From: a virus
Lineage: Duplodnaviria; Heunggongvirae; Uroviricota; Caudoviricetes
Strand: one strand, 5' to 3'
IMG/VR virus record: IMGVR_UViG_2698536484_000013
Coordinates: 1 to 17,868 of that record
DNA length: 17,868 bases
Part shown: in pieces, positions 211 through 1,038 of the stretch
Position numbering within the stretch: position 1 is the stretch's first letter
Layout of the letters: each line of letters opens with the position of its first letter
Program-made: the position numbers and the translations under genes
Notes under the pieces: generated by a model
What the model saw: the letters and a program-made list of their open reading frames with translations, nothing else
The model's database searches: none
Told to the model about the DNA's origin: nothing

Positions 211-1038
211 ATGAAAAAAACGTTGATTAGTGCAGCGATTATTTTGGGTTCTTTATGTCTGACCGGATGCGATCGGGTAGAGCCAGGTAACGTAGGGATC
301 AAAGTAAATAAGCTGGGGGATGATAAAGGTATCGGTGAAGTAGTTGGCGTTGGTCGCTACTGGACAGGCTTGAATACTGAAGTTTATATCTTCCCGACCT
401 TTAAGCAAATGAAGACATACGATGAGCCGTTCAGCTTCCAGATGAGCGACGGAACAACCATTGGTTACCACATCGGCGTAGCCTACAAGGTTGATCCAGC
501 AAAAGTCACAACGGTATTTCAGACCTATCGCAAAGGTGTAGATGATATTACTGATACCGATCTACGCCAGAAGGTTGCAGATGCTCTGAACCGGTTAGCC
601 AGCAAAATGACCACCGACAAATTTATCGACGGTGGCAAATCTGAATTGCTTGATGCAGCCCTTAAAGACATTCAGGAAGAAATGACGCCAATCGGCATTC
701 AGGTGATGAGCCTCTCTTATGTAGGTAAGCCAGAATACCCGCCAACAGTTATTGACAGTATTAACGCCAAAGTCACGGCAAACCAAAAAACCCTGCAACG
801 CGAGCAAGAGGTCAAACAACGTGAAGCAGAGGCCAACATGCTGCGCGCGGAAGCTGCCGGACAGGCTGATGCTATTCGCACAAAAGCTCAGGCCGAAGCT
901 GATGCCATTCGTTTACGTGGTGAAGCTCTGCGCCAGAACCCCGGTGTTATGGAGTTGGAAGCGATCAACAAATGGAACGGTACATTACCGCAGTATATGA
1001 CCAGTAATACCGCTGTTCCGTTTGTTCCGGTGAAATAA
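211..1038 (+). CDS. SPFH/band-7 (prohibitin/HflKC-like) domain lipoprotein
   Basis: 275 aa ORF; N-terminal signal peptide with lipobox LTGC (MKKTLISAAIILGSLCLTGC); Ala/Glu/Gln-rich coiled-coil tail typical of SPFH proteins; AGGA about 10 nt upstream of ATG 211. May correspond to the lipoprotein gene next to a tRNA in P1-like phages (recollection only). Confidence 0.8.
   Translation: MKKTLISAAIILGSLCLTGCDRVEPGNVGIKVNKLGDDKGIGEVVGVGRYWTGLNTEVYIFPTFKQMKTYDEPFSFQMSDGTTIGYHIGVAYKVDPAKVTTVFQTYRKGVDDITDTDLRQKVADALNRLASKMTTDKFIDGGKSELLDAALKDIQEEMTPIGIQVMSLSYVGKPEYPPTVIDSINAKVTANQKTLQREQEVKQREAEANMLRAEAAGQADAIRTKAQAEADAIRLRGEALRQNPGVMELEAINKWNGTLPQYMTSNTAVPFVPVK

Follow-up and report, generated by a model that had tools for sequence, protein, structure and literature searches.

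The DNA considered here, called the window throughout, is a stretch of 17,868 nucleotides (IMG/VR virus record IMGVR_UViG_2698536484_000013, positions 1 to 17,868) that carries close to its left end a gene for an SPFH/band-7 lipoprotein. Between bases 112 and 17810 the window is 98-99% identical to several Punavirus records and is assigned, on this sequence evidence, to a P1-like phage-plasmid (Punavirus), in agreement with the phage backbone recognized in an earlier reading made from the letters alone (the sequence-only reading). The SPFH protein is 100% identical to gp078 of RCS47. Window positions 1-1150 are found with a coverage of 80% or more in about 190 PLSDB plasmids, and those listed annotate an SPFH domain-containing protein. 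The gene sequence is already present in public databases, and the gene is an ordinary annotated accessory gene of P1-like phage-plasmids. In relatives with an intact locus it follows a gene for a small membrane protein, the two forming a conserved pair, and in the window this pair is interrupted by the insertion sequence IS5; the sequence-only reading overlooked both the two-gene module and its break. Features of the window are collected in Table 1. Coordinates in RCS47 and P1 are given within the loci L001 (RCS47) and L002 (P1), each locus having its own numbering.

The SPFH lipoprotein and its hairpin partner

The SPFH gene has an AGGA Shine-Dalgarno motif 9 nt 5' of its ATG. Its product matched the Pfam family Band_7/SPFH (PF01145) with 107.6 bits (cutoff 23.6) and an E value of 9.7e-31 over amino acids 22-208, covering profile positions 2-176 of 176, and PHROG 200, annotated as 'lipoprotein', with an E value of 2e-113. 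A monomer model was obtained with AlphaFold2 from an alignment of 109 diverse homologs, and its mean predicted local distance difference test (pLDDT) score was 91.2. The model is laid out as an N-terminal helix, a beta-rich SPFH1, an alpha/beta SPFH2, a helix of 65 residues, a short helix and a tail. In Foldseek searches against the PDB it was aligned at full length with HflK, HflC, prohibitin, erlin, stomatin, flotillin and QmcA (E 1e-14 to 1e-8; HflK/HflC E 2e-14), with a probability of 1.00 for HflK/C, prohibitin, erlin, stomatin and flotillin; major vault protein was also among the matches. The best solved relative by sequence was HflK (E 2e-4). According to the model, the protein holds the full architecture of the cage-forming SPFH proteins, including an anchor, SPFH1, SPFH2, a 65-residue coiled coil and a conserved C-terminal cap motif. 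The SPFH/band-7 identity given in the sequence-only reading is upheld by the Pfam match, the confident model and the full-length matches to SPFH cage subunits; profile searches had been named beforehand as the test of this fold, and they back it.

The mature part of the protein has evolved under tight constraint. When copies on the P1-like element were compared with those of P88 and of an Stx-associated prophage, the ratio of nonsynonymous to synonymous substitution rates (dN/dS) was 0.008-0.055 at a dS of about 1, and the gene is a real coding sequence under very strong purifying selection. In a number of GenBank records (FO818745, LC5678xx, MK773491 and others) the gene is labelled 'serine protease' or 'putative serine protease', a candidate identity that was rejected after a Pfam scan found no protease domain. 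One GenBank record labels it 'transposase', and no such domain was detectable. Both labels appear to be propagated misannotations.

The N-terminus of the protein, MKKTLISAAIILGSLCLTG followed by CDR, combines a positive n-region, a hydrophobic core and the lipobox L-T-G-C. Read as MKK, TLISAAIILGSLC and LTG in front of the cysteine, it agrees with the lipoprotein pattern [LVI][ASTVI][GAS]C, and the signal with the lipobox LTG before C20 bears out the earlier designation of the product as a lipoprotein. A lipobox of the form L[VTA]GC was found in 108 of 120 close homologs, 103 of which have Asp at position +2. In enterobacteria, as known from lipoprotein sorting in E. coli, Asp at +2 is the signal for retention in the inner membrane. 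In 11 of the 120 close homologs the lipobox Cys is replaced by Tyr, Trp or Phe (GY/GW/GF), which suggests an uncleaved signal anchor in these proteins and a repeated switch away from the lipid anchor. The Cys-replaced homologs include P0072, P0073, P0078, P0079, P0113 and P0116-P0120 and are otherwise intact, and one clade, found on hundreds of contigs, has up to 175 contigs per cluster. Distant representatives carry either a lipobox or a plain N-terminal helix or signal anchor, and the fusions with the hairpin partner described below have two further helices. With each of these anchor variants the SPFH domain would sit on the outer side of the cytoplasmic membrane.

The second component of the module is encoded directly upstream. 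In RCS47 an open reading frame (ORF) of 78 amino acids (L001 5883..6119) runs into the start of the SPFH gene with an overlap of 20 nt; in P88 the partner has 67 amino acids and its stop overlaps the SPFH ATG; and in a lambdoid prophage adjoining an Stx2a phage a partner of 62 amino acids overlaps the SPFH start. These three partners matched PHROG 1130, annotated as 'membrane protein', with E values of 6e-16 to 7e-23 (RCS47 6e-16), and no Pfam family was matched by any of them. The partner is predicted from its sequence to be a membrane protein of 60-80 amino acids made of a two-helix hairpin, the turn of which has the conserved motif P-x-[ML]-[ILV]-S-[AS]-x-[DS]-[TS]. Lysine and arginine residues, counted over 25 partner sequences, numbered 28 in the N-terminal tail, 10 in the loop and 65 in the C-terminal tail, and because the tails are rich in these residues the hairpin fits an N-in/C-in topology with the turn in the periplasm.

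The pair was found to be widely conserved. The partner gene lies upstream of the SPFH gene also in Vequintavirinae (Hena1, 24-2-1), in Bruynoghevirus PSA34 and in Burkholderia phage vB_E173. In a set of 183 loci from IMG/VR and GenBank, which drew on three distant representatives for diversity, a search with 16 sequences having returned close relatives only, a hidden Markov model (HMM) of the partner gave a same-strand upstream match in 159. When the SPFH proteins were clustered at 70% identity, the partner was present in 9 of 13 clusters according to the HMM and in 3 more upon inspection for the motif. Furthermore, in about 20 of the 150 most similar representatives of 50% clusters the hairpin forms the N-terminal part of the SPFH protein itself; these fusions align in register with the hairpins that are encoded separately, and the lipobox Cys is kept in every one. 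The PHROG 200 profile has about 80 additional N-terminal positions relative to the SPFH protein studied here, and these fit the existence of hairpin-SPFH fusions. Since the two genes are translationally coupled and have been fused recurrently, there is strong comparative evidence that the hairpin and SPFH proteins act together, presumably in equal amounts.

One homolog of 347 amino acids (P0001) mimics the true fusions of the distant relatives. There, an A run shorter by one base than the run that follows the SPFH start codon in the window brings the partner and SPFH ORFs into one frame, and the product reads ...FFREKTRKLINEKTLISAAIIFGSLCLTGCDR; the shorter run may reflect an error in sequencing or a site of natural slippage.

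An NfeD identity (PF01957) was considered for the partner and rejected, as 17 partner sequences gave no Pfam NfeD match, a profile search of the PDB gave no solved relative, neither YbbJ nor another NfeD chain being returned, and a protein of only 60-80 amino acids cannot hold an OB fold. A holin identity was rejected as well. The matches to PHROG 565 (E 0.099) and Pfam Holin_SPP1 (E 0.17) were non-significant, and the gene is located in early or replication operons, not beside an endolysin; the partner has a topology like that of class II holins, which is a resemblance only.

The ban operon slot, its control and the IS5 insertion

Alignment of P1, RCS47 and the window revealed a cassette exchange. 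The homology of P1 to the window resumes at base 1057 (window 1057-4000 against P1 L002 8925-11868, 99.5%). In RCS47 a segment of 1,088 bp (L001 5858-6945) stands in place of the P1 segment that holds tciA-tciB-tciC (L002 8209-8924); the RCS47 segment has no counterpart in the P1 segment, and the left boundary is located about 25 nt 5' of the first gene in either version. As alternative cassettes, the SPFH pair and the TerB-like tciABC genes occupy exactly the same position in the ban operon, between upl and trnI and just upstream of trnI-ban, with clean boundaries on both sides. Like the SPFH pair, tciABC are accessory genes of envelope or stress type; they are unrelated to the pair in sequence and fold, TciA being a TerB-family protein. 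The predicted upl promoters annotated in P1 fall inside the swapped segment.

In RCS47 a perfect bivalent C1 operator, Op72, is present on the same strand at L001 4118-4145, about 1.8 kb upstream of the cassette, and no further C1 operator was found between Op72 and the cassette. The P1 record annotates Op72 as controlling ban. Neither RCS47 4700-7400 nor window 1-1500 gave a sigma-70-like promoter in a consensus scan, which was a strict one that weak or non-sigma-70 promoters would escape. The gene trnI begins 27 nt past the SPFH stop in the same direction, with no convincing terminator in this gap. Because the SPFH gene of the intact relatives lies downstream of Op72, with no promoter of its own detected and no terminator before trnI, the simplest reading makes it a member of the early ban transcript that C1 represses. 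The arrangement in other temperate carriers is similar. In the P2-like P88 the gene is within the early operon, and in the lambdoid prophage it is placed between cI and xis-int, on their strand. In all three temperate backbones examined the pair is placed among the early genes and shares their strand, and the early operons that hold it in the P2-like and lambdoid carriers are repressor-controlled.

In the window this arrangement has been broken. All P1-like matches to the window begin at base 112, and IS5 copies of more than 2,000 plasmids match bases 1-111 with 100% identity; in NZ_CP041922 the coding sequence of the IS5 transposase is on the same strand as the matching stretch and stops 36 nt short of it. 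The insertion is in codon 40/41 of the partner gene, so that the first helix and the start codon are lost, and the remnant overlaps the SPFH start by 20 nt. IS5 is located between the SPFH gene and Op72/Pban. Because it has cut the hairpin gene and split the SPFH gene from Pban, the SPFH protein would be made here only through read-through from IS5 and without its partner, and the module is predicted to be disabled in this copy. The exact IS5/P1 junction was absent from phage, plasmid and complete E. coli genome collections and from 184 loci. The window starts inside IS5, and the source contig may have ended in this repeat; the far side of the insertion lies outside the window.

The same partner gene is interrupted independently, and at a different position, in another P1-like element (L028 1943-3960; IMGVR_UViG_2529293038_000017). 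The insert is an IS21-family element of about 1.95 kb (IstA 340 amino acids, IstB 260 amino acids), and its 9-bp duplication matches window 162-170. Two insertions in a partner gene of 237 bp are suggestive of counter-selection or of a hot spot, as an anecdote only.

A proposed membrane module of early infection and its rivals

The pair was found in P1-like, P2-like, lambdoid and virulent phages. SPFH homologs of virulent phages were found in Kayvirus, rV5-like phages/Vequintavirinae, Bruynoghevirus, jumbo, T4-like and N4-like phages, and homologs are also present in haloarchaeal viruses. The virulent Kayvirus is known to carry the SPFH homolog MbpS (PMC7150955), and the occurrence of such proteins in virulent phages was also reported elsewhere, with their role in phages being called unclear (PMC13239085). 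The CRISPRi-ART phage fitness supplements contained no SPFH, band 7, HflC or stomatin entry.

Among cellular proteins, HflK/HflC, which build a cage around FtsH in E. coli (PDB 7VHP/7VHQ, 7WI3, 9CZ2), were the best matches of the phage protein in both sequence and fold. Anchor, SPFH1, SPFH2, long coiled coil and C-terminal cap follow each other in the same order in both. HflK/HflC have a periplasmic orientation on the inner membrane, which is predicted for the phage protein too and which, to our knowledge, is found among the SPFH proteins of E. coli in HflK/HflC only. However, HflK/HflC is a two-gene heteromer anchored by a transmembrane helix, whereas the phage protein is the product of a single gene, has a predicted lipid anchor and comes with a hairpin partner of its own; one SPFH ORF only was found in the cassette and its flanks.

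The SPFH-NfeD operons, such as QmcA-YbbJ (PDB 8Z5G) and stomatin PH1511 with PH1510, resemble the phage pair in that two co-directional and tightly coupled genes encode an SPFH protein and a small membrane protein, and QmcA was matched by the phage model in Foldseek (E 3e-8). The phage partner differs in being a bare two-helix hairpin of 60-80 amino acids with no OB-fold and no Pfam NfeD match. In addition, the SPFH domain of QmcA faces the cytoplasm, whereas the phage protein is predicted to be exported. Kayvirus MbpS, from the Staphylococcus phages K/MSA6, is a distant homolog (about 26% identical) from a Gram-positive host, with an anchor read as a transmembrane helix and not as a lipobox. 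Its gene and the gene mbpV, encoding a small membrane protein of 102 amino acids with one transmembrane domain, belong to a three-gene stretch of a virulent phage that adjoins the lysis genes lysK and tgl and lies between them (PMC7150955). The paired module of the P1-like element is a variant of the known theme of an SPFH protein with a membrane partner.

We propose that the SPFH protein is the scaffold subunit of a two-gene phage membrane module, namely a periplasm-facing cage on the inner membrane, assembled in the early phase of lytic growth and not serving lysogenic conversion; the probability of this reading is put at about 50%. The hairpin membrane protein would be translated first and the SPFH lipoprotein from the overlapping start. 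The latter would then be exported, lipidated and kept in the inner membrane facing the periplasm, on the side of HflK/HflC. It may oligomerise and cover a patch of inner membrane with a closed dome, the hairpin being its equimolar transmembrane partner or client. The module would be made early in lytic growth and would leave the phenotype of the lysogen unchanged. It might partition or stabilise the inner membrane of the infected cell, for instance so that it stays sealed and energised up to the time of programmed lysis, or it might set a host membrane complex apart from its surroundings. Between unrelated phages the mature domain has changed extremely little, and a generic constraint from the membrane or from self-assembly therefore fits better than an arms race.

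Several points weigh against this proposal. One cluster of 8 loci (L171) has no upstream partner. Arg at +3 after Asp at +2 may weaken inner-membrane retention in E. coli, as a matter of Lol avoidance. Given the strictness of the promoter scan, some expression of the SPFH gene in the lysogen is conceivable. Membrane stabilisation or lysis timing is a choice among several candidate outputs, and the literature yielded no functional study of any member of the subfamily, with remarks at the level of annotation only.

More tentatively, the PHROG 1130 hairpin and the PHROG 200 SPFH lipoprotein may constitute a two-component phage organelle, used by virulent and temperate phages, in which, early in infection, they would build a cage on the cytoplasmic membrane that faces outward and would fence or protect a patch of host membrane. 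The two parts would be produced in equal numbers or else as a single precursor, which signal peptidase II could cleave in two. That such an organelle is a so far undescribed phage counterpart of the cellular SPFH-NfeD and HflK/C systems is put forward with the same reserve.

Two rival explanations are live. The first holds that the protein is a mimic of HflK/HflC, which would engage the FtsH of the host from the periplasmic side, shift the stability of phage or host substrates of FtsH and tune the choice between lysis and lysogeny or lytic development. Effects of this kind have been the subject of speculation for a phage SPFH protein (PMC4936722, PMC8540360), and the sequence match, the structural match and the predicted orientation described above all point in this direction. 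The identity to HflK is only about 19%, however, and the scores against the NCBIfam equivalog models stayed far below their cutoffs (TIGR01932 hflC, 24.7 against 134.4 bits; TIGR01933 hflK, 23.3 against 159.4 bits). The single SPFH gene in place of a K/C pair and the lipid anchor predicted in place of a transmembrane helix speak against mimicry too, as do the dedicated hairpin, which suggests a self-contained module, and the homologs in haloarchaeal viruses. The hosts of these viruses are not known to have FtsH. Taken as a whole, mimicry of HflK/HflC is considered unlikely.

The second live rival, early superinfection exclusion, is also an improbable one. Here the cage and the hairpin would block the DNA entry or envelope penetration of later phages at the inner membrane, in the manner of T4 Imm/Sp or P22 SieA. 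Exclusion proteins are usually specific and diverse, in contrast to a mature domain that is extremely well conserved in phage types and hosts unrelated to one another; no similarity to known exclusion proteins was seen, and the defence-system models of PADLOC, compared with the SPFH protein at E values up to 1, gave matches to zero families. Exclusion would nevertheless agree with the early position, with the predicted periplasmic face and inner-membrane location and with the presence of the family in virulent and temperate phages alike, and for tciABC, the counterpart in the slot, the homology-based annotation names colicin or phage-inhibition functions.

The sequence-only reading had regarded the gene as a possible lysogenic-conversion or membrane-stress factor, and this emphasis on lysogeny was probably wrong. 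With a gene of this kind, a moron, the prophage would express the SPFH lipoprotein in the lysogen and so alter the tolerance to membrane stress or exclude other phages. In favour of it, the gene occupies a swappable accessory slot (tciABC in P1), the partner family has the PHROG category 'moron, auxiliary metabolic gene and host takeover', and low constitutive expression is conceivable in the window, where IS5 has taken the gene out of C1 control and the IS5 transposase is oriented in its direction. The case is weakened by the abundance of the family in strictly virulent phages, by the early-region position downstream of Op72 in intact relatives and by the lack of a detected promoter of its own, while the very low dN/dS is unusual for arms-race exclusion genes and PADLOC gave no match, so that a moron function is held to be doubtful.

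The structures of SPFH cages (HflK/C, prohibitin, stomatin, flotillin, erlin) have been solved recently. If the proposed membrane module is real, a compact phage system of one scaffold gene and one partner of 60-80 amino acids, sometimes fused, would offer a simple model for SPFH cage function, and it would be a new element of the phage takeover of the host envelope. The conserved hairpin partner that is fused in distant relatives, the tciABC cassette swap and the IS5 disruption of this copy are added here. For the window itself the significance is modest, as it has an annotated accessory gene in a swappable slot, with a module apparently disabled by IS5.

Neighbouring genes and the remainder of the window

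Table 1. Features at the left end of the window (positions of the window; amino acid positions refer to the SPFH protein)
Feature	Position	Strand	Basis or remark
3' end of IS5, closing with terminal inverted repeat CTTATTCGCACCTTCC	1..111	+	transposase reads toward the SPFH gene
CTAA, IS5 target site at the junction	112..115		uninterrupted in RCS47, ...atctcatCTAAcagcaca..., at L001 6001-6004
Partner gene remnant, codons 41-78 and stop of the 78-aa protein	114..230	+	translation ...NSTILVLLGVLLALIYPAFAVVFFREKTRKLINEKNVD and stop, equal to the C-terminal half of the RCS47 ORF
SPFH/band-7 lipoprotein gene, 275 aa, ATG start	211..1038	+	ORF list, profile and model evidence
A7 run right after the SPFH ATG	214..220	+	window sequence
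Signal peptide, aa 1-19; Cys20 (predicted lipidated), nt 268-270; Asp21	within 211..1038	+	sequence
SPFH1, aa 20-94; SPFH2, aa 96-175; long coiled-coil helix, aa 178-242	within 211..1038	+	model
Short helix, aa 244-254; C-terminal KWNGTLP motif, aa 254-260	within 211..1038	+	model/sequence
Right boundary of the replacing cassette	1057		P1/RCS47 alignment; 9 nt before trnI
trnI of P1 (tRNA-Ile2, CAU anticodon)	1066..1141	+	ARAGORN, Rfam, P1 record annotation
ban, DnaB-like replicative helicase, next gene of the same operon	1428..2792	+	ORF list, P1 annotation
dbn	2792-3790		follows ban

The neighbours named in the sequence-only reading, a tRNA gene and a replicative helicase gene, were both recovered, the former by ARAGORN and Rfam and the latter as ban. 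The tRNA gene was called tRNA-Met (CAT) by ARAGORN and is labelled tRNA-Met in several phage records, but this label does not stand, since the annotation of the P1 record identifies the gene as trnI; it is 89% identical to ileX of E. coli. In the Rfam search of bases 1-1500 this tRNA was the only match.

A search of the window for C1 operators found none near the SPFH gene, the nearest site being at 8661. Four matches to the operator consensus were obtained in the window (8661-8677, 12285-12350, 14426-14442), with 0.06 expected by chance, and these four sites probably correspond to the known P1 operators of the tail and pmg region. Canonical P1 homology ends at 15315, and RCS47-type records go on to 17810 in several pieces. 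Window 15316-17868 is another variable region of the backbone and includes an ORF of 177 amino acids at 15829-16362.

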